Source of the DNA: an uncultured Actinomycetota bacterium
GTDB lineage: Bacteria > Actinomycetota > Humimicrobiia > Humimicrobiales > Humimicrobiaceae
Assembly: GCA_964426155.1 (NCBI GenBank)
Contig: CAYROY010000107.1
Location: 1 to 59,900 of the forward strand
DNA length: 59,900 bases
Direction of reading: 5' to 3'
In this document: piece after piece, positions 2,516 to 34,248 of the stretch
Layout: each line of letters opens with the position of its first letter
Numbering within the stretch: position 1 is the stretch's first letter
Made by a program: the position numbers and the translations under genes
Notes under the pieces: model-generated
What the model saw: only the letters and a program-made list of their open reading frames with translations
Told to the model about the DNA's origin: nothing
Databases searched by the model: none

Positions 2516-3313
2516 ATGTCGGAAAGCAAAAAAGAAACGATTATTGCTCAAATATCAGATATACATGTAGGAGAACAGCATTTTATACCGAGCCTTTTAA
2601 CCAGAGCCATAGATGAAATAAACGATCTTAATCCAGATATAGTAATCATAACAGGAGATCTGACTGCAAATGGTTTTAGAATGGAATATGAAACAGTAAG
2701 AAACTACCTGGCACCTATAAAATGTAAAAATCTGATTGTGCAACTTGGAAATCATGATTCAAGAAATGTAGGCTATCTGCATTTTGAAGAGCTTTTTGGA
2801 GAAAGATATACAACATTTAAAAATAATACAATAACGATTGTTGCTGCTGATTCGAGCGAACCTGATCTGGATAACGGGCAGATAGGCAGGGAGCACTATC
2901 AATGGATAAGTAGGGAGTTCAATGATTCTGAAAAGAATAGCTTCAAGATATTTGCTATGCACCATCACCTTGTATCGGTTCCCAATACCGGAAGGGAAAG
3001 AAATATTGTTAATGATGCCGGAGATGTCCTTGAGACAATAGTAGATGCCGGTGTGGATATGGTGCTTTGCGGGCATAAACACGTTCCTTATTTATGGCGC
3101 ATAGAGGATATGATGGTGGTCACGGCAGGTACTGTATCCTGCCTGAGGCTCAGGGGTGCAATTGAGCCAAGCTATAATATAATATACGTAAGAGAGAAGG
3201 ATATAGATATCTACAGAAGATATCCATTTGACAAAATTGAGAGAATAAAAGGAATAAAAAGATCGATCAGGAAGGCAAGACTCTGTGATAAGTTTATTAC
3301 AGAAAAAAGATAA
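2516..3313 (+). CDS. Calcineurin-like metallophosphoesterase
   Basis: Motifs DIHVG, GDLTANG, GNHD, MHHH and GHKH in canonical order. AAAGGAAA RBS upstream. Confidence 0.85.
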   Translation: MSESKKETIIAQISDIHVGEQHFIPSLLTRAIDEINDLNPDIVIITGDLTANGFRMEYETVRNYLAPIKCKNLIVQLGNHDSRNVGYLHFEELFGERYTTFKNNTITIVAADSSEPDLDNGQIGREHYQWISREFNDSEKNSFKIFAMHHHLVSVPNTGRERNIVNDAGDVLETIVDAGVDMVLCGHKHVPYLWRIEDMMVVTAGTVSCLRLRGAIEPSYNIIYVREKDIDIYRRYPFDKIERIKGIKRSIRKARLCDKFITEKR

Positions 3314-4649
3314 TAAAAATAAAAAACTTATAGCTCTGATAGACGGAGAACATTATCCTGAGGTTAACAGGGATGCTCTGGAATTTTTAAAAAATAGTTT
3401 CACAGGAACTTTTGAAGGAATTATTTTTTTGGGTGGTACAGAGAAACTTATCATAGATGATCTCGAAGGATATTTTAAAGAGAAGGTTTATGTTATAAAT
3501 GACCTTGACCGTGATTTCTGTACTGCTCTTAAATATTTCTCACCCGATATCGTATATGATCTGAGTGATGAACCGGTTGTCAATTACAGAATAAGAATGA
3601 AGATAGCTTCTTTCTGTATGGCAAGTGGAAGTAGTTATATGGGACCTGATTTTCTATTCAGTTATGAAGAAAGGAAAATTAAAATAGCAAAAAAGACCTT
3701 ATCCATTATAGGGACAGGCAAAAGGATAGGAAAAACTGCTGTAAGCTCATATATAGCGAGAATATTTTCCGAGGAGAATATCAATACAGCCATTATAGCA
3801 ATGGGAAGAGGCGGACCCTCAACACCACAGGTCATAAGGGGTGATGAAATCGACATTGATGCAGGATACCTGCTTGACCTTAACAAAAAGGGTTTTCACG
3901 CAAGTTCAGATTATATAGAGGATGCATTACTAAGTGAGGTAGTTACTATAGGTTGCAGGAGATGCGGGGGAGGATTTGCAGGTAAGATATTTATGACTAA
4001 TCTTGGTGAGGGTGCCAGGCTTGCAGAAAAACTTGATTCAGATCTTATTATTGTTGAAGGCAGCGGGGCCTCTATACCTGAAGTGGCTTCAGATAAAACT
4101 ATTTGTGTAATCGGCGCTTTCCAGGAGTGGGAAAGTCTGGTGGGGTATCTCGGTATTTATAGAATAATGCTGGCAGATATGATAATAATTACCATGTGTG
4201 AGGATCCTCCTGCAAAAAAGGAAAAAATAGAAATTTTGGTAGATAAGATTAAAAAATATAATCCAGGTGTAGATATAATAAAAACAGTTTTCAGACCCAA
4301 ACCCCTTACAAATGTAGAAGGGAAAAAAGTGTTTCTCGGAATGACTTCTCAGAAAATTACAGGGTCCAACATAACCGGCCATCTTGAAAGTGAATACGGT
4401 TGCAGAATAGTAAAGGCAAGTTTTAACCTTTCAAAACGAGAACTTTTAAAAAGAGATCTTAATGAAAGTCCGGATTTTGATATTATACTTACGGAATTAA
4501 AGGCTGCTGCTGTGGATGTACTTACAGAATATGCTTCTGAAAACAAAAAAGAGATATCATATATTGATAATATACTAGTAGTTATTGACAGAGAAAGGGA
4601 TTTTAAGAAGGATGTTATAAAATTAATAAAGGAGAAAAGCACCAGATGA
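3285..4649 (+). CDS. cpgS: Putative cyclic 2,3-diphosphoglycerate synthetase (cDPGS family)
   Basis: About 454 aa with LIDGEHYP near the N-terminus, P-loop-like IIGTGKRIGKTAV, MGRGGP, GCRRCGGG, EGSGASIP and LTELKAAAVDV. I recognise these from memory as the methanogen cDPG synthetase family; no search was run. GTG start overlaps the upstream gene by 29 nt. Confidence 0.65.
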   Translation: MISLLQKKDNKNKKLIALIDGEHYPEVNRDALEFLKNSFTGTFEGIIFLGGTEKLIIDDLEGYFKEKVYVINDLDRDFCTALKYFSPDIVYDLSDEPVVNYRIRMKIASFCMASGSSYMGPDFLFSYEERKIKIAKKTLSIIGTGKRIGKTAVSSYIARIFSEENINTAIIAMGRGGPSTPQVIRGDEIDIDAGYLLDLNKKGFHASSDYIEDALLSEVVTIGCRRCGGGFAGKIFMTNLGEGARLAEKLDSDLIIVEGSGASIPEVASDKTICVIGAFQEWESLVGYLGIYRIMLADMIIITMCEDPPAKKEKIEILVDKIKKYNPGVDIIKTVFRPKPLTNVEGKKVFLGMTSQKITGSNITGHLESEYGCRIVKASFNLSKRELLKRDLNESPDFDIILTELKAAAVDVLTEYASENKKEISYIDNILVVIDRERDFKKDVIKLIKEKSTR

Positions 4650-5599
4650 CCATAAAAGAAGAAGAAAACAAGCGGAACCCGGTAGTAATCACTGATAAAA
4701 GAATGGGACTTCCTTTCTCGAAAGGCATACTTGCTTCGTCTATTTCTGTTACGGGTATTGAGATAGTAATTGCACACAGGATAGCTTCTGAAATTCAGGA
4801 TTACTTTGAGGAAAATAATATAAGGTCAATAACTCTTGATGAACTTAGGTCGCTTGCTTTCAGGTTCATAAAAGAAGATTCTGGTATCGATAATGCAGAG
4901 AAATACCTTCTCTGGCAGTCTGTCGGGAAACTTCAAAAACCAACTATAATACTTCTGGGCGGTGCTACCGGTGTGGGTAAATCAACGGTGGCCACAATTA
5001 TTGCAAACCGCTTAAATATAACGAGAGTAGCTTCGACCGATGCGATAAGGGAGGTGATGAGAGCCTCAGTCTCTGAGAAATTAATAAGGCCCCTGCGCGG
5101 GTCTTCTTATAATGCATATAAAAATTTAACTCTCCCGCCTTCCGGAGTAGAACCTGTAATACTGGGATTCAGGGAACAGGTATGTGCTGTAAATGTAGGT
5201 ATCGAAGCCATTATAAAAAGGAGTGTTGTAGAAAAGACAGATATTGTTATTGAAGGTGCACATGTGGTCCCGGGATATCTGGACGTTTTGCAATACAAGG
5301 ATAAGGCGGTTATTATTCAAATGGTAGTATCAGTTCCAAATAAAAGTATACATAAGGAACATTTTACCAAGAGGACTGTTGAGACTCAGGGTTCAAGACC
5401 TATGCAGCGGTATATAAAAAATCTTGACCAGATCACTATAATAAGGAATTATCTGGAGGACCTCGCAGTCAGGAATAATGTAGAAATAATACAAAACTAT
5501 AATCTTGATAATACTGTAAAGCAGGCACTTGATATTATTTTCAAAAAAGTAAAAGATGAATTTGCGAGAATGGGTAAGGAATATTTTAAAAGCACCTGA
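4646..5599 (+). CDS. 2-phosphoglycerate kinase
   Basis: N-terminal ATP-cone-like segment (LPFSKGILASS...), P-loop LLGGATGVGKST, TDAIREVMR and GSSYNAY: the typical 2PGK-family pattern. ATGA start/stop overlap with the upstream gene. Confidence 0.75.
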   Translation: MTIKEEENKRNPVVITDKRMGLPFSKGILASSISVTGIEIVIAHRIASEIQDYFEENNIRSITLDELRSLAFRFIKEDSGIDNAEKYLLWQSVGKLQKPTIILLGGATGVGKSTVATIIANRLNITRVASTDAIREVMRASVSEKLIRPLRGSSYNAYKNLTLPPSGVEPVILGFREQVCAVNVGIEAIIKRSVVEKTDIVIEGAHVVPGYLDVLQYKDKAVIIQMVVSVPNKSIHKEHFTKRTVETQGSRPMQRYIKNLDQITIIRNYLEDLAVRNNVEIIQNYNLDNTVKQALDIIFKKVKDEFARMGKEYFKST

Positions 5600-5601
5600 T
5601 A

Positions 5602-6033
5602 TTAGTTGATGCTGACAGAAAAAGAAGTCTCTTCGGACTGCATATTATTATAATCAACAATTACTTTATAATCACCAGGATAGTATATGTTATTCCTTTT
5701 AAGAAGATATACACTTATCTTGCCGCTTCCATTATTTTTTATCTTAATCTTATCCTGCTGGATTACCCTGTATCCGGATCCCTTTTGATAAAGCCAGGTT
5801 ACATTTATATTTTCTCCAGTTTTTACATCTTTTATCGGTATTACAAGGTATACATCGGAGCTATCAGAATTAAAATCGGTAATTTTTAGATTTTCTCCCG
5901 AAACCTCATCGGTATTTATTGCATCGGAAAGATATATTTTCCCTATGAAGGGTTCTTCTTTAAGAGTTAAGAAAGCAACAGCTATAAGTATAATAGCACC
6001 TATAACTGCTATTATAATACTTGTCTTTTTCAT
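5602..6033 (-). CDS. Membrane-anchored hypothetical protein
   Basis: 143-aa ORF with an N-terminal anchor MKKTSIIIAVIGAIILIAVAFL and a beta-rich remainder. Convergent with 2PGK; the two stops are 2 nt apart. Confidence 0.6.
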   Translation of the reverse strand: MKKTSIIIAVIGAIILIAVAFLTLKEEPFIGKIYLSDAINTDEVSGENLKITDFNSDSSDVYLVIPIKDVKTGENINVTWLYQKGSGYRVIQQDKIKIKNNGSGKISVYLLKRNNIYYPGDYKVIVDYNNMQSEETSFSVSIN

Positions 6034-6548: not shown

Positions 6549-7028
6549 TTGATGATTTTATTAATAATTTTATCGATTATATTAATATGGCTGCATATTT
6601 CCAGTCTGAAGTTAATTATAAAGACCAGGAGCGGGCAGGCCATTGCTGTAAAGGATGTATCAGAAATAGAAGAAAAGATGCAGATCACCGATGGAAAAGA
6701 TTCTCCAGTTGGTATAATGCCGGTTCTGATGTCTATTGGAGTGGTGTTTTTTTTAAATTTAATTGAAATTGGATATTTCATTTTTTGTGTATATTATTTC
6801 GATGATCAGGTTGTTGTAATAGGTAGTTCAATACTGGTGGGATATTCATTATATTCTATAATTAAATTTGTTCCCAGAATTAAGGAATTTATTAGAAAAC
6901 CTTTCAGTATATTAATGGAAAAGGCAGAAAAGCATGAAAGATTAATGAATATTGTCATGGTTCTACTGGAAATAATTTTTTGTACATATATATTATTCAA
7001 AATTATTTTTGTAAATTTAAAAGGGTAA
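6549..7028 (+). CDS. Polytopic membrane protein, unknown function
   Basis: 159-aa ORF with about four hydrophobic helices and no recognisable family. The start could be TTG 6549 or ATG 6552. Confidence 0.55.
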   Translation: MMILLIILSIILIWLHISSLKLIIKTRSGQAIAVKDVSEIEEKMQITDGKDSPVGIMPVLMSIGVVFFLNLIEIGYFIFCVYYFDDQVVVIGSSILVGYSLYSIIKFVPRIKEFIRKPFSILMEKAEKHERLMNIVMVLLEIIFCTYILFKIIFVNLKG

Positions 7029-7033
7029 AAAAA

Positions 7034-7585
7034 ATGAGTAATTTAAAGAATTTAAATTTATTAATTTTTATTCTTCTAGTATCTACGGTAGCTGTTTTTA
7101 CGGCATCCTGTGTCTTTACGGCTTCAACGGGTCCAGAGGAGGAGTCTGTGGTTGAAATAGATCAGCCGGTGGAAGATAAATCAGACAATCTTGCCGAAGA
7201 AGAGTTTGAGCAGCTTCTGGAGAGTGAAAATTTTCTGGAGACTTTTAATACTTTTTATTATCCTGATGCCAGCGTAAAACAGGCAAGTCTTTTAAAAGAT
7301 GAACAGGAGATGGTATATGTGATCCTCGACACTGATGAAAGCTTTGAAACCGTAGAAGATTATTACAAAAATAAGAGAATCCAGTCCATATGGAAAAGAG
7401 ATTTCATATATCAGAAAAATATGGCTGATATTGAAGAGGATTTTATAGAGGTAGAAGATAAAAATATAGAAATATCAAAATTTACTTTTTCGAGCAGTAA
7501 TAGAGATAAGGTTGTAGATATTCTTATTAAAAATCTTGATGAAGGCAGGACACAGATAATGATAACATTCTGGGATCTTAAGTAG
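7034..7585 (+). CDS. Putative secreted protein or lipoprotein, acidic
   Basis: Start taken at ATG 7034 (MSNLKNLNLLIFILLVSTVAVFTASC...): a signal peptide with a lipobox-like TASC. The 6980 start in the ORF track would overlap the previous gene. Confidence 0.6.
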   Translation: MSNLKNLNLLIFILLVSTVAVFTASCVFTASTGPEEESVVEIDQPVEDKSDNLAEEEFEQLLESENFLETFNTFYYPDASVKQASLLKDEQEMVYVILDTDESFETVEDYYKNKRIQSIWKRDFIYQKNMADIEEDFIEVEDKNIEISKFTFSSSNRDKVVDILIKNLDEGRTQIMITFWDLK

Positions 7586-30426: not shown

Positions 30427-30455
30427 TTGACATTCTAATATAACAGTTCTATCAT
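30427..30455 (+). promoter_or_regulatory. Candidate sigma-70-type promoter of the CpaE-like/HTH/peptide locus
   Basis: TTGACA (30427-30432), exactly 17-nt spacer, TATCAT (30450-30455). Confidence 0.5.
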
Positions 30456-30479: not shown

Positions 30480-30581
30480 ATGTTTAATATTATTACAATG
30501 TTAATTGTAGGAATTATAACATATATAATACAGAGGGTTTTTAGCAGAAGAATTGTAAAAATTATTAGACTAATAACGTAA
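30480..30581 (+). CDS. Candidate 33-aa hydrophobic small ORF
   Basis: ATG 30480 ... TAA 30579-30581 encodes MFNIITMLIVGIITYIIQRVFSRRIVKIIRLIT. Its stop overlaps the next gene's ATG (TAATG). No good SD, and an open frame of this length could arise by chance. Confidence 0.3.
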   Translation: MFNIITMLIVGIITYIIQRVFSRRIVKIIRLIT

Positions 30582-31651
30582 TGGGTGTAATTCTTTACAT
30601 AGGGAACGATAAAAATATTATGGTAAGTATCCAGAAGTTATCATCAGGAAGAAATAAAATTGCGGTACTGGATGCAAGATGTAATTACAGGCATTATATA
30701 GAAGAATATATACCGGATTATATTTTGCTATCCGGATCAATAAATAGGTTCAGTGAAATTTCACAATATATAATCAATGAAACATCTTCTAACCTTATAA
30801 TAACCGGGAATAAAAAAGGTAATCAAATATTACCGGGTATTCCAACTGTAAATAACCCTGAAACAATAGAAAGGCTTAAAAGTATTGTTGACTTAATAAA
30901 TAATATTGATTCGGAAACTAAGAGTGAAAATAGTAAATATAAATTTCTGAGGCAGGAAGTTATTTCTTTTTATTCGATACAGGGGGGAGTTGGAAAAACC
31001 ACTCTGGCTGTTAATGCTGCCTGGCAGTTACGGAGAATGAATATCGGCAGGATATTGATACTGGACCTTAACTTCTGCGAGGGGCCGTCGGATATACCTA
31101 TCAGGTTGGATATAAACAGCTCCAGGAATATAGGAGATTATATTGACGATGTTATCGGAGGTGATGGGGATATAGAGAAAAATATAGTAGAGTTAAATGG
31201 CATCGATATAATGAGTGCTCCATATTCATTATACAAGAGTGACAGCTTCGATATAGATATGCTGGATGGGCTGATTTATTCTGCAAGGAATGATTATGAT
31301 GTGATTATTGCAGATATACCATTCAGATATGACAATATTTCTCTGGAAATGATAAACCTTTCTACAACATCCGTACTTGTATTGTCACAGGAAATAGGGG
31401 TAGTACCAAGAATATTGGAATTTAAGAAATTCCTTCCCGAAAATCAGAAAAAAATAGCTGTAATAAATAAATTTGAAGATTCCCCGGGAATGGCAATTGA
31501 TGAACTGGAAAAAATAATAGGGATACCGGTATGCATATCTATACCTTACATCACATCAGAAAGAAAAGGCCTTATAAAAGATAATAATAAAATTACAGGA
31601 ATTTTAGATCTGGAGGCGGGAATAAATAATCTTTTAAATAATATATTTTAA
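30581..31651 (+). CDS. CpaE/TadZ-like ParA/MinD-superfamily ATPase with degenerate N-terminal receiver-like domain
   Basis: The C-terminal half has the P-loop FYSIQGGVGKTTLAVNAA, ILILDLN and IIADIP. The N-terminal roughly 110 aa has a receiver-like alternating pattern, but the phospho-acceptor position reads LLSGS. Confidence 0.7.
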   Translation: MGVILYIGNDKNIMVSIQKLSSGRNKIAVLDARCNYRHYIEEYIPDYILLSGSINRFSEISQYIINETSSNLIITGNKKGNQILPGIPTVNNPETIERLKSIVDLINNIDSETKSENSKYKFLRQEVISFYSIQGGVGKTTLAVNAAWQLRRMNIGRILILDLNFCEGPSDIPIRLDINSSRNIGDYIDDVIGGDGDIEKNIVELNGIDIMSAPYSLYKSDSFDIDMLDGLIYSARNDYDVIIADIPFRYDNISLEMINLSTTSVLVLSQEIGVVPRILEFKKFLPENQKKIAVINKFEDSPGMAIDELEKIIGIPVCISIPYITSERKGLIKDNNKITGILDLEAGINNLLNNIF

Positions 31652-32043: not shown

Positions 32044-32202
32044 ATGGAGAAAAAAAAGGGCCTTACCCGTCTGGAGAAGACAGCTATTGTAGTTATCATA
32101 ATACTGGTAATTATTATTGTAGGTCTTATTTTTAAGGACCGGATAGAAGAGTATATAAAAATATTTATGGAATGGTACACAGCAGAAAGCCAGAGTTTGT
32201 AG
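32044..32202 (+). CDS. 52-aa single-pass membrane protein
   Basis: MEKKKGLTRLEKTAIVVIIILVIIIVGLIFKDRIEEYIKIFMEWYTAESQSL. ATG 32044 is chosen because the 31999 start in the ORF track overlaps the HTH gene. Confidence 0.5.
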   Translation: MEKKKGLTRLEKTAIVVIIILVIIIVGLIFKDRIEEYIKIFMEWYTAESQSL

Positions 32203-32220
32203 TAAAAGGAGGTGAGAAAG

Positions 32221-32292
32221 ATGAAGAAATTATACAGGGTACTGATGATACTGGGATCATTAGTAGGAATATGCGCTACAGTTAGATGGTAG
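32221..32292 (+). CDS. 23-aa hydrophobic peptide, copy 1
   Basis: AAAAGGAGGTGA SD with 8-nt spacing to ATG 32221. Encodes MKKLYRVLMILGSLVGICATVRW, ending at TAG. Confidence 0.6.
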   Translation: MKKLYRVLMILGSLVGICATVRW

Positions 32293-32344
32293 AAAATATG
32301 AATCTATGGAAAAAAATAGATTTCAAGAGATGGAGGTGAGAAAG

Positions 32345-32416
32345 ATGAAGAAATTATACAGGGTACTGATGATACTGGGATCATTAGTAGGAATATGCGC
32401 TACAGTCAGATGGTAG
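32345..32416 (+). CDS. 23-aa hydrophobic peptide, copy 2 (identical product)
   Basis: GGAGGTGA SD with the same spacing and an identical peptide. The single nucleotide difference from copy 1 is synonymous (GTT/GTC, Val21). Confidence 0.6.
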   Translation: MKKLYRVLMILGSLVGICATVRW

Positions 32417-32482
32417 AAAATATAACAAATTATACTTTTTTGCTATAATAAATAATATTTATTAACTATAAATACTATAAAT

Positions 32483-33733
32483 TTGGTTGAAAAGAAAGCT
32501 CTAGTTTTAAAGATATATGTTTATGTTATTTTCCTGATAGGGTTGGCTGTTTTTATTTACATCCTCATAAACTATAAGAATATATCTTTATTGGGAGTGA
32601 TATTGTTTGGTATGTTGATATTCATTGCTGACAACCTTTCAGCACCTCTCCCAAAGACCGGAAGCGTATCAGTTAATTTTGGTATATCTCTAGCAAGTCT
32701 CATAATATTTGGTCCGTCTACTGCGATTATTGTTACTTTCATTTCTATTTTCAATATAAGGGAGTTCATTAAAAGAATTCCATATTACAGACATATATTT
32801 AATGCCGGCCAATATCTTATTTCAATGGGAATAGCAAGTCTGGTCTTTGAGCTGATATATAACAGGGAAGTTTCAAACTTTTTTAACCCGGCTAATTTAA
32901 GCTATATTCTTGCTGCAGCTTATATATTTTTCTTTCTAAACACAATTCTTACGGCAGGAGCGATCTCAATAAGTGAGGGAATCAGCGTTGCTAATGTCTG
33001 GATATTTAATTTTGCATGGCTTATACCTTTTCAATTATTCCTGGCCGCAATGGCAATAGCAATTTCTTTCCTTTACAAGCTTTATGGTCCTTTTACATTA
33101 CTGTTTACTTCATTACCTCTTATAATCGCTCAGTATACATATCTTTTAAGGGTAAAAGAAAGAAGAGCATTATTAAATAGTATTTTGCAGATCGTAAAGA
33201 TAGTTGAGGCTAAGGACCCTTATACTGCAGGTCACTCGGTAAGAGTTGCTGAATATAGTGAAAAAATCGCAAGGGAATTAAAACTGAATGAATATGATAT
33301 TGAACTTCTAATAAACCTTGCTAATTTACATGACCTTGGGAAAATTCAGATTGATCTATCGATACTTAATAAGCCGGGAAAATTTGATAAGAAAGACTGG
33401 GAAGAGGTAAAAAAACATCCTATAGTTGGTTATAATATAGTAAAAGAGATAACCTTTCTCAAAAGTGAAGCGAAATCGATATTATACCATCATGAAAGAA
33501 TAGACGGAAGCGGTTACCCATATGGATTAAAAGGAGCAAAAATCCCGCTTTTTGCAAAGATACTGGCTGTAGCTGATTCATATGATGCCATGACTACAAG
33601 CAGACCCTACCGGGATTCTCTCTCAAACAGTGAGGCGATAATAGAACTCAAAAAAAATTCAGGAACCCAGTTTGATATAAATGTCGCCGGGGCAATGATA
33701 GAAATATTAAAGAGGGAAATGGCTGAATCATGA
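32483..33733 (+). CDS. Polytopic membrane HD-GYP domain protein (putative c-di-GMP phosphodiesterase)
   Basis: The N-terminal roughly 220 aa holds about 7 hydrophobic helices. The C-terminal HD-GYP domain has HSVRVAEY, LHDLGK and HHERIDGSGYPYGL. TTG start with no clear SD. Confidence 0.85.
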   Translation: MVEKKALVLKIYVYVIFLIGLAVFIYILINYKNISLLGVILFGMLIFIADNLSAPLPKTGSVSVNFGISLASLIIFGPSTAIIVTFISIFNIREFIKRIPYYRHIFNAGQYLISMGIASLVFELIYNREVSNFFNPANLSYILAAAYIFFFLNTILTAGAISISEGISVANVWIFNFAWLIPFQLFLAAMAIAISFLYKLYGPFTLLFTSLPLIIAQYTYLLRVKERRALLNSILQIVKIVEAKDPYTAGHSVRVAEYSEKIARELKLNEYDIELLINLANLHDLGKIQIDLSILNKPGKFDKKDWEEVKKHPIVGYNIVKEITFLKSEAKSILYHHERIDGSGYPYGLKGAKIPLFAKILAVADSYDAMTTSRPYRDSLSNSEAIIELKKNSGTQFDINVAGAMIEILKREMAES

Positions 33734-34248
33734 TTAAAAAGTACTGGGTTATATTTTTAAAATGTATTGGAGTTTTTGCTGCAGGATGTATTATTGGATA
33801 TTTTTTTTATTATTTTTTTAGCAATCAGAGTGCTTTTATAATAGAAAAGTTTAAGTTACTACAGAGTTTTTTCGGTATAGAAAATTTCAGCGATGGTATG
33901 CTGATAAGAACTGCCATTTTAACTATACTTTTAGGAAACCTTGTATCTATAATATGCTATATTGCTCTGGGTTTTGCCAGGTTAAGTCTTCCCATAAGTT
34001 TTTTATCCGGCTTTTTCGTAATTGTCTTTTTGTTTTCAGGCATAATAAGACATGGAACAGCCATACCTCTGGAGGTAATAATACTATCCTCTATAGAGAT
34101 GCTATACAGAATTATAGCTGTGAGTGCCGGAGAATATATAAGCAAACAGAGATTAAAAAACAGGGCAGTACCAGTAACTGCTTTTAGCACTGTATTCATA
34201 TTATATATTTTTGCCGCTTTTTATGAGGTATGGCAGTTATATCAGTAG
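33730..34248 (+). CDS. Membrane protein, SpoIIM/DUF95-like
   Basis: 172 aa, 4-5 TM helices, with an RHGTAIPLE segment resembling the HGxxExP motif of SpoIIM-family proteins. ATGA overlap with the HD-GYP gene. Confidence 0.45.
   Translation: MIKKYWVIFLKCIGVFAAGCIIGYFFYYFFSNQSAFIIEKFKLLQSFFGIENFSDGMLIRTAILTILLGNLVSIICYIALGFARLSLPISFLSGFFVIVFLFSGIIRHGTAIPLEVIILSSIEMLYRIIAVSAGEYISKQRLKNRAVPVTAFSTVFILYIFAAFYEVWQLYQ

Follow-up and report, generated by a model that had tools for sequence, protein, structure and literature searches.

The contig CAYROY010000107.1 (GenBank assembly GCA_964426155.1) of an uncultured Actinomycetota bacterium of the family Humimicrobiaceae carries, within the 59,900 nucleotides (nt) analyzed here (positions 1 to 59,900 of the forward strand; hereafter the window), two tandem copies of a 23-codon gene upstream of a gene for a MASE9-HD-GYP phosphodiesterase of cyclic di-GMP (c-di-GMP). 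We propose that the encoded peptide, MKKLYRVLMILGSLVGICATVRW, is a single-pass membrane peptide that acts on the MASE9-HD-GYP module within the membrane; based on comparison of the locus across relatives, we assign this statement as a whole a probability of about 0.5.

A tandem 23-codon gene

The elements of the repeat, all on the forward strand, are as follows.

32208..32215 (+): Shine-Dalgarno sequence (SD) of copy 1 (GGAGGTGA), identified from the sequence; GGAGG(T/G)G is the sole conserved spacer part in relatives
32221..32292 (+): first copy of the mini-gene (23 codons, then TAG), specifying MKKLYRVLMILGSLVGICATVRW and under purifying selection solely in this frame
32293..32331 (+): spacer between the copies, containing a weak AT-rich hairpin (AATCTAT-8 nt-ATAGATT) and not conserved in sequence in other lineages
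32332..32339 (+): SD of copy 2, identified from the sequence
32345..32416 (+): mini-gene copy 2, encoding the identical peptide and one synonymous base apart from copy 1

The two units (32208-32299 and 32332-32423; 92 nt each) are identical at 91/92 positions with a period of 124 nt, and the sole mismatch (T at 32283, C at 32407) is a synonymous GTT/GTC difference at Val21; weaker similarity extends to 32185-32299 versus 32309-32423 (115 nt, 90%). Each unit reads GGAGGTGAGAAAGATG, in which GGAGGTGAGAAAG-ATG is followed by 23 codons and TAG, and both open reading frames (ORFs; ATG 32221-32292 and ATG 32345-32416) yield the same peptide. In both copies the GGAGG core lies 8 nt 5' of the ATG and the full SD 8-mer ends 5 nt 5' of it. 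Copy 1 begins 18 nt past the stop of a 52-amino acid (aa) membrane ORF (32044-32202), and 66 nt separate the end of copy 2 from the TTG start of the MASE9-HD-GYP gene (32483). Re-measurement thus reproduced what the original prediction had reported for the period, identity and synonymous difference of the repeat, as well as its placement right after the 52-aa ORF and about 65 nt before the gene for the HD-GYP sensor. The further statement that no SD in the window is stronger holds approximately: GGAGGTGA has six occurrences across the window, where shuffles predict 1.4, and the four outside the repeat are located within long ORFs. The repeat is neither a chance event nor an assembly artefact, because the copies differ in their flanks and the arrangement recurs in independent assemblies.

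Coding status and selection

The comparative data set comprises 89 distinct coding sequences (CDSs) specifying 52 distinct peptides. All 89 are 23 codons in length and preceded by an SD, with the exception of one outlier start call (locus L019); 79 start with ATG and nine with GTG, the outlier making up the remainder, and all end in TAG or TAA. Among eight distinct lineage sequences, the ratio of non-synonymous to synonymous differences per site (pN/pS) is 0.185 (~0.19) in the proposed frame, compared to 1.0 and 2.8 in the other frames, and variable alignment columns fall on codon positions 1, 2 and 3 in the numbers 10, 3 and 19, respectively. The spacers between copies are unrelated across lineages, with the exception of the GGAGG(T/G)G ribosome-binding site. 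Judged from these substitution patterns, the mini-gene is a genuine protein-coding gene, and it very probably specifies a real, translated small membrane protein.

The alternative, that the unit is a non-coding repeat or a structured RNA with an accidental ORF, could appeal to the folding of the window region, which is better than that of shuffled sequences (z = -3.8); this score was discounted because tandem repeats inflate such values. The strongest hairpin, of 10 bp within the window ORF, is a product of the gene's own codon choices and is missing in relatives, and Rfam returned nothing relevant (for the whole window at gathering thresholds, for the region at E up to 10, and for five solitary loci). 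A structured RNA that ignores the reading frame was therefore rejected, because selection follows the frame and because start, stop, length and SD are constant in the 89 CDSs bar the one outlier; a non-coding origin is, in our view, effectively refuted. The sequence-based observations that the original prediction named as refuting it were not made: in relatives, the repeat is present and its codons are constrained, and RNA covariation that disregards the frame was not found.

Peptide features and variation

The peptide has a 15-residue hydrophobic core (mean Kyte-Doolittle hydropathy 2.46 over residues 7-21) and an N-side charge of +3, with three basic residues among the first six (MKKLYR). 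There is an aromatic residue near both ends (Y/W5 and W23), with Arg22 completing an Arg-Trp C-terminus; charges occur at the ends only and the peptide is not amphipathic. At 23 aa it has the properties of the small (< ~60 aa), hydrophobic, membrane-targeted peptides of type I systems. It also contains a small-xxx-small helix-packing motif (G12-S-L-V-G16). Based on the positive-inside rule applied to the basic N-terminus, the peptide is predicted to form a single-span helix with the N-terminus inside and the C-terminus outside.

Two scans of large collections used a degenerate DNA pattern (xLGSLxGxCxxxRW-stop), and the invariance of G12, G16, C18 and W23 among the loci so retrieved was partly imposed, since the pattern fixed these positions. 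Positions left free by the pattern are still tightly constrained: A/S/G at 19, T/S at 20, K/R at 3, R/K at 6 and L at 8. Pattern-independent sampling recovered Ser at position 12 (L114, ...IALSSIIGICSTVRW, from enzyme-first sampling) and Ala at position 18 (P0175 and P0176, ...GIAATVRW, from an exhaustive profile search). Thus, the robust core of the family is a small-xxx-small motif (G/S12...G16) together with a T/S-V-R-W C-terminus, and the conservation of small residues at i/i+4 and of this terminus points to a specific helix-helix contact, as opposed to generic membrane insertion.

Several other roles were considered from the sequence. A redox or disulfide function of Cys18 was downgraded, given that the HD-GYP protein has no Cys and that some family members carry Ala18. 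A lipoprotein or pheromone signal peptide was rejected: there is no lipobox ([LVI][ASTVI][GAS]C), the residue before Cys18 being Ile or Leu, and Cys18 itself is sometimes Ala. The peptide has no Gly-x4-Glu motif of a prepilin signal, and an AgrD- or ComX-like precursor was rejected in that no AgrB, ComQ or processing genes are nearby.

One protein, P0178 (54 aa), reads MKKLMRVLIVLGSLVGICSTVRGGENNEE...; here the RW-stop has been lost and translation enters the next copy out of frame, either in a frameshifted pseudogene copy or through a sequencing error.

Distribution and copy number

The first protein search used the peptide concatenated twice, to reach a 40-aa query minimum, and yielded ten ORFs that had been called too long, each with the same 23 C-terminal residues; several of these start in an out-of-frame reading of an upstream copy, which was the first sign of tandem copies in relatives. 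Exact-sequence look-ups of the window HD-GYP translation and of a 36-aa ORF gave no match. The degenerate pattern matched 29 stretches in GTDB species representatives and 62 in JGI metagenome contigs, with no matches in IMG/VR viral contigs and therefore no sign of a phage origin. A search with a profile of the family (hmmsearch) across 1.84 billion (1.84e9) representative proteins retrieved only ten proteins, all of them members of this peptide family, and the peptide matched no family in Pfam (E up to 10) or NCBIfam (E up to 1). No paper containing the motif was found in the literature searched. All GTDB relatives are labelled uncultured Actinomycetota (one of them Candidatus Humimicrobiales) except for one unclassified "uncultured bacterium." Because Pfam, NCBIfam and the literature were empty and the profile search returned family members only, we regard the peptide family as new to the databases searched and confined to one uncultured low-G+C Actinomycetota lineage, as far as these sequence collections reach. 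The original prediction had been unable to place the peptide in any known family, and this holds across Pfam, NCBIfam, Rfam and the literature searched.

Despite their Actinomycetota label, the window and L017-L045 have a G+C content of 32-41% and a Firmicutes-like gene order (dcw-ftsZ-sepF-yggT-divIVA, AddAB). Such a combination is typical of deep-branching uncultured classes, and explains the clostridial name given to the homologue P0058 in one database source.

Arrays linked to HD-GYP contain one, two, three or four copies in 36, 13, seven and two cases, respectively. Among contigs whose HD-GYP is 100% identical to that of the window, including L108-L113 from JGI samples, three copies with the 124-nt period occur in L108, L110 and L112; the window, L109 and L111 have two each, and L113, truncated near its first copy, has at least two. 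Thus, copy number varies within the species, from two to three beside an identical enzyme, and the copy-number variation that the original prediction proposed to look for is present. These counts are lower bounds, because short-read contigs frequently stop within the array or have N-gaps in it (N-gaps in L004, L033 and L041; a contig end inside or right after the array in L007, L015, L032 and L052), and published copy numbers for the peptide array are probably underestimates. Some arrays are recent duplications (0-1 differences). The duplicates in L013, L040, L066 and L081 are old, with 6-14 synonymous differences and few amino acid changes; their retention argues for lasting maintenance of multiple copies, as opposed to a purely transient state.

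Linkage to MASE9-HD-GYP and TM172

Two genes downstream of the peptide array are central to the proposed function.

32483..33733 (+): MASE9-HD-GYP c-di-GMP phosphodiesterase gene, 416 aa, TTG start (HD_5 match, 7.9e-35)
33730..34248 (+): TM172, a multi-pass membrane protein of 172 aa, the gene of which overlaps the end of the HD-GYP gene by 4 nt

The HD-GYP protein retains intact catalytic motifs (HD and HHERIDGSGYP) and contains no Cys. The MASE9 match in the window protein reaches 24.2 bits against a cutoff of 24.3 bits, and relatives carry a precomputed MASE9 match. TM172 belongs to no Pfam or NCBIfam family; its 43 homologues are all hypothetical proteins from this lineage only. An AlphaFold2 model (mean predicted local distance difference test score 79.7) has six helices, and a Foldseek search against the PDB returned noise only (E > 1, TM-score at most 0.33), so the TM172 fold gives no functional clue.

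Ninety-one distinct arrays were identified, 79 of which have readable downstream sequence. In 60/79, an HD-GYP orthologue (47-100% identity) lies 64-345 nt past the last stop (median ~75 nt), such that a single-pass peptide is encoded directly upstream of a polytopic membrane protein. Most loci were retrieved by the peptide-derived DNA pattern, so that this statistic runs from peptide to enzyme. In the MKK(L/F/I)YR clade, which includes the window, ParA-like, HTH_17 and 52-aa genes lie upstream and there are one to four peptide copies; the MSK(L/I)WK clade is without these three genes and has one copy, yet the peptide gene is still followed by HD-GYP and, at most loci, then by a TM172 homologue. 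TM172 follows HD-GYP wherever there is enough downstream sequence, with the exception of L026. The metagenome-assembled genome (MAG) JBBQDW01 (Ca. Humimicrobiales) has two separate peptide-HD-GYP pairs (L026 and L035, with the peptides MSKVWKVLLILGSLIGICATVRW and MSKIWKILLVLGSLVGICATVRW), which suggests that the pair was duplicated or retained as a unit. In the opposite direction, the HD-GYP homologue P0103 (69% identity) was picked from an enzyme search that gave 4566 homologues at E up to 1e-30, and is located between enolase-side genes and mannitol dehydrogenase; 82 nt upstream of it there is a 23-codon ORF, MSKLMKVLIALSSIIGICSTVRW, with a GGAGG SD, and TM172 is downstream.

HD-GYP and TM172 are the only recurrent neighbours of the peptide genes. 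Since the linkage survives changes of neighbours and was recovered enzyme-first at P0103, the conserved core consists of one to four peptide cistrons, MASE9-HD-GYP and the ~172-aa membrane protein, in that order. The synteny with HD-GYP that the original prediction proposed to examine is therefore a feature of most assessable arrays, and its suggestion of a small membrane modulator of the 7-TM HD-GYP sensor is the one that best fits the comparative data, which include the independence from other neighbours and the enzyme-first recovery.

Solitary paralogues and their leader

The remaining 19 assessable arrays consist of one solitary copy each, in many cases within a MAG that contains an HD-GYP-linked array as well. 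Their neighbours include a DUF4172-Fic protein, a MerR-type regulator and a DnaK-like protein (the last of these assigned by its N-terminal sequence only), a cation-efflux gene with an aldo-keto reductase, a sigma factor, and tRNA-synthetase-like genes. All solitary units are built alike: ~135 nt upstream there is an extended -10 box (TGTTATAAT), a conserved leader leads from it to the SD and the ORF, and a GC-rich 3' hairpin, which is a canonical terminator in one subgroup, closes the unit.

L055:622-903 (-), L072:607-888 (+), L024:2367-2648 (-), L023:3814-4095 (+), and 17 more: solitary units with the leader
Solitary unit (e.g., L055:622-903): putatively pairing segments CAUAGCACAACCUCU and GGAGGUUGUG

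The leader contains an element, (UU)CAUAGCAnnACCUC(U/C), that is complementary to the SD-AUG region. Minimum free energy folds pair the SD-AUG stretch with the CAUAGCAnnACCUC element in 11/15 solitary units, and in 12/15 the SD is less accessible than with a shuffled leader, although the effect is modest (e.g., 0.10-0.27 vs 0.36-0.49). Covariation in the leader-SD helix is weak (RNAalifold predicts nine pairs, with mostly invariant positions or one-sided changes), and the claim made here is therefore one of conserved complementarity and per-sequence folding, as opposed to a proven structure. A covariance model of the leader recovered 21 solitary units at 87-126 bits (21/21 matches in ~750 kb), with no match at HD-GYP-linked copies or in the window, and five solitary loci had no Rfam match to the leader. 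We regard this 5' leader of ~135 nt as a candidate new cis-regulatory element that may exert translational control, perhaps as a thermosensor or small RNA target.

Solitary and arrayed paralogues of the same genome differ at 9-11.5 synonymous sites (proportion of synonymous differences, pS, 0.56-0.78) and at 0-3 non-synonymous sites in six of seven pairs (two genomes at 0; the JAFGDA01 pair at 7.5). On these divergences, they are old paralogues held to nearly the same peptide.

Proposed mechanism and alternatives

In the proposed mechanism, the peptide would insert into the membrane with its basic N-terminus in the cytoplasm and its Arg-Trp end at the outer face of the membrane, where it would pack against the transmembrane MASE9 sensor domain or against the co-encoded TM172. 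Such packing would alter the activity or stability of the phosphodiesterase and so shift the cellular c-di-GMP level. The tandem copy number would set the basal dose of peptide, to which the separately regulated solitary paralogue, present in many genomes, would add under other conditions. Binding to MASE9 or TM172 within the bilayer is favoured because these are the sole recurrent partners of the peptide, because its helix features are conserved, and because the authors who defined MASE9 considered that ligand binding probably "occurs within the membrane" (bioRxiv 10.1101/2021.11.05.467447). Functional coupling of the peptide to the HD-GYP/TM172 module, taken separately, is slightly favoured over its opposite; the topology, a direct contact between the peptide and MASE9 or TM172, and a resulting change in c-di-GMP are all inferred. 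More tentatively, and with the odds against it, the peptide might be the in-membrane ligand of the MASE9 sensor, with HD-GYP turning the abundance of peptide in the bilayer into a c-di-GMP level. The peptide would then be a self-made transmembrane "signal," supplied by dosage-variable tandem cistrons and by a solitary gene held off by its SD-complementary leader.

Several points weigh against an action on the MASE9-HD-GYP module. The whole case is comparative, and the linkage from enzyme to peptide depends on one independent test, at P0103. As 19/79 arrays are solitary and have unrelated neighbours (Fic/MerR-type/DnaK, the cation-efflux gene, the sigma factor and others), the peptide is not exclusively tied to HD-GYP, and adjacency could result from shared regulation or history instead of contact. 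Because Gly12 and Cys18 are not invariant, neither a strict GxxxG motif nor the Cys can be essential, and a disulfide between peptide and enzyme is ruled out by the lack of Cys in the latter. Finally, a promoter-like element precedes the HD-GYP gene (see below), which suggests that peptide and HD-GYP are perhaps not strictly co-transcribed.

The original prediction also drew a parallel to type I toxins, in which case the peptide would be a membrane-active toxin or stress peptide under RNA-level control and its place beside HD-GYP a coincidence. In size, hydrophobicity and tandem, multi-copy spread in a narrow lineage the peptide does resemble Ibs, Ldr, Zor and ShoB, and the solitary paralogues are stand-alone transcription units whose leaders, unit-specific in 21/21 matches, reduce the predicted accessibility of the SD in 12/15 units. 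The window and other HD-GYP-linked copies, by contrast, do not each have their own transcription unit with a structured 5' untranslated region (UTR): array copies are 39-56 nt apart, with unconserved spacers and no leader, leaving no room for a promoter or antisense gene for each, and the conserved genes around them form a string on one strand. The sequence comparison revealed neither an antisense nor a divergent RNA gene, and conservation around the solitary units stops at the -10 box and the 3' hairpin; the solitary units may nonetheless harbour an antisense RNA. Type I toxin peptides are usually far less conserved than this one, which is near-invariant across lineages with neighbour proteins only 45-70% identical and which stays identical between old paralogues; the HD-GYP linkage and the weak covariation of the leader helix also speak against a toxin. 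We therefore consider the type I parallel unsupported for the packed cistrons of the window and compatible with the mRNA layout of the solitary paralogues; because of that layout the toxin explanation retains some weight, although it is unlikely.

A released or membrane-shed product (a pheromone-like signal, a leaderless bacteriocin or a peptide resembling phenol-soluble modulins, PSMs), with TM172 for immunity or export and MASE9-HD-GYP as a possible receptor, would be in keeping with the multi-pass membrane protein and membrane sensor encoded next door, and tandem near-identical leaderless peptides with strong SDs recall PSM-alpha and multi-peptide leaderless bacteriocins. We consider this improbable: the neighbourhood contains no conserved gene for an ABC exporter, a processing protease or a modification enzyme, TM172 does not resemble any immunity or export protein of solved structure, the charges are restricted to the peptide ends in a non-amphipathic sequence, and the peptide is almost invariant across the lineage and keeps its place in the core genome, whereas bacteriocins usually vary from strain to strain. 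A stoichiometric small subunit of another membrane complex, in the style of KdpF or CydX and with a partner that is neither HD-GYP nor TM172, would account for the varied genes beside solitary paralogues and for the strong constraint and small-xxx-small motif indicative of a specific helix-helix contact; this is equally hard to credit, in that no gene besides HD-GYP and TM172 is consistently adjacent and the solitary units end in hairpins or terminators and look monocistronic. It is very improbable that the ORFs are cis-acting leader peptides (upstream ORFs) whose translation itself controls HD-GYP expression. Although they are 64-110 nt upstream of HD-GYP in most loci and have strong SDs, the amino acids are conserved along the whole peptide while synonymous change is saturated, the window has no terminator/anti-terminator structure between ORF and HD-GYP, tandem identical copies are unexpected for an attenuator, and the 19 solitary copies end in a hairpin without a downstream target gene.

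Gene neighbourhood in the window

The window is a chromosomal contig (G+C 32-41%). On one strand, the gene order runs from the dcw cluster through ftsQ/A/Z, sepF, proC, yggT, divIVA and DUF167 to the string that contains the mini-genes: a ParA/MinD-type ATPase, a protein with two HTH_17 domains, the 52-aa ORF, both mini-genes, MASE9-HD-GYP, and the overlapping 172-aa membrane protein. Gaps between these genes are small, the largest (~270 nt) being 5' of the ParA-like gene and containing a promoter-like site. A GT2 gene follows on the opposite strand, and the remainder of the window is housekeeping.

30427-30455: promoter-like site of the ParA-like gene (TTGACA-17 nt-TATCAT, 11/12 matches)
30581..31651 (+): opening gene of the string, for a ParA/MinD-type ATPase (CpaE/TadZ/Ssd-like) that is extended at its N-terminus by ~120 aa
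31653..32039 (+): 128-aa protein carrying a pair of excisionase-type DNA-binding domains (HTH_17), found upstream of the peptide genes in no clade but MKK
32044..32202 (+): 52-aa single-pass membrane ORF, MKK...YR clade only, 40-81% identity where tblastn detects it
32422..32449 (+): promoter-like extended -10 element 3' of the last copy (ATAACA-16 nt-TGcTATAAT, 10/12 matches with TG)

The stretch 32417-32449 (AAATATAACAAATTAT.CTTTTTTG.TATAAT) is far better conserved than the inter-copy spacers, and an element ATATAAyAAATT..TTTTTGGTATAAT follows the last copy in the window and in L001, L008, L009, L013, L017, L018, L020, L025, L028, L040 and L041. Its sequence resembles that of a promoter of the extended -10 type, which would serve the HD-GYP gene. 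In the MSK clade, the loci share instead AATTCCTATATTTAAGAAGTA...AGAGG...TTCCTGTTG 5' of the HD-GYP start. The stretch between peptide and HD-GYP in L114 (2420-2500) reads CGTTATAATTGTCGTATAT, resembling the promoter box and TGTCGTATA motif that open the leaders of the solitary units (A1 columns 10-35); the L114 stretch and these leaders may share an operator or promoter element.

The first residues of the 52-aa ORF, MEKKKG|LTRLE, resemble a prepilin leader, with Glu at +5. The Pfam match of this ORF to Flp1_like is below threshold (E 3.3e-4; 20.5 bits vs a 33.5-bit cutoff), and no homologues of TadA/B/C or prepilin peptidase were detected among the other window ORFs scanned with Pfam. Elsewhere in the window, ORFs of 454, 143, 159 and 201 aa (3285-4649, 5602-6033 (-) and 6549-7585) have no Pfam match, and the ORF at 4646-5599 has weak matches to Zeta_toxin and AAA_18 only.

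Comparison with known systems

Among tandem small-peptide genes, those of staphylococcal PSM-alpha1-4 and of multi-peptide leaderless bacteriocins such as aureocin A70 are likewise near-identical, leaderless and ~20-30 codons long, with a strong ribosome-binding site before every gene. Dedicated transporters export those peptides, which are amphipathic or cationic, whereas the Humimicrobiaceae peptide is a plain transmembrane helix, has no transporter nearby and is conserved lineage-wide. The type I toxins of the Ibs/Sib, Ldr/Rdl, ZorO/OrzO, ShoB/OhsC, TisB/IstR-1 and Fst systems are similar in that they are hydrophobic peptides of 19-35 aa, with multiple or tandem copies in narrow taxa, and in that the solitary paralogues have a long SD-complementary 5' leader and a 3' hairpin. 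They differ from the peptide described here, the window copies of which are closely packed cistrons that have no promoter, leader or antisense partner of their own, by its extreme conservation and fixed synteny with an enzyme, by the lack of sequence similarity to any known toxin family, and because an antitoxin RNA was not found. The downstream gene has the MASE9-HD_5 architecture of Thermotoga maritima TM1467 and Streptomyces venezuelae HdgA; the association with a peptide gene was examined here in this actinobacterial lineage.

The closest functional parallels would be MgrB and SafA, small membrane-protein modulators that act on PhoQ, together with PmrR, MgtR, MgtS, AcrZ, KdpF and CydX. In these, as in the Humimicrobiaceae loci, a very short single-pass peptide is encoded beside a polytopic membrane protein or regulated together with it, is presumed to act through helix-helix contacts in the bilayer, and was overlooked by annotation on account of its size. 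They have no sequence relationship to the peptide described here, the presumed target of which is a MASE9-HD-GYP phosphodiesterase in a putative interaction, and which is encoded in tandem arrays of one to four copies and by a separately regulated solitary paralogue. Nowhere in the literature searched was a small protein described that acts on HD-GYP or MASE9 proteins. To our knowledge, neither a peptide partner of a MASE9-HD-GYP phosphodiesterase nor any ligand or partner of a MASE9 protein has been described, and MASE-type sensor domains are common inputs of c-di-GMP enzymes for which we know of almost no signals. The hosts are uncultured and a function is drawn from synteny, which are the main limits of the study; within them, a conserved, linked transmembrane peptide is a concrete and cheap hypothesis for an orphan MASE9 sensor. 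The 23-codon gene is missed by standard gene callers, yet it is among the most conserved coding sequences of its lineage and is retained in several copies under two different expression regimes, to which the solitary units add a candidate cis-regulatory leader RNA that is absent from Rfam. The peptide family is new, its presumed mechanism belongs to a known class, and the pairing itself would be unprecedented: if correct, it would give MASE-type domains of c-di-GMP enzymes their first assigned ligand or partner, and HD-GYP phosphodiesterases their first small-protein regulator.

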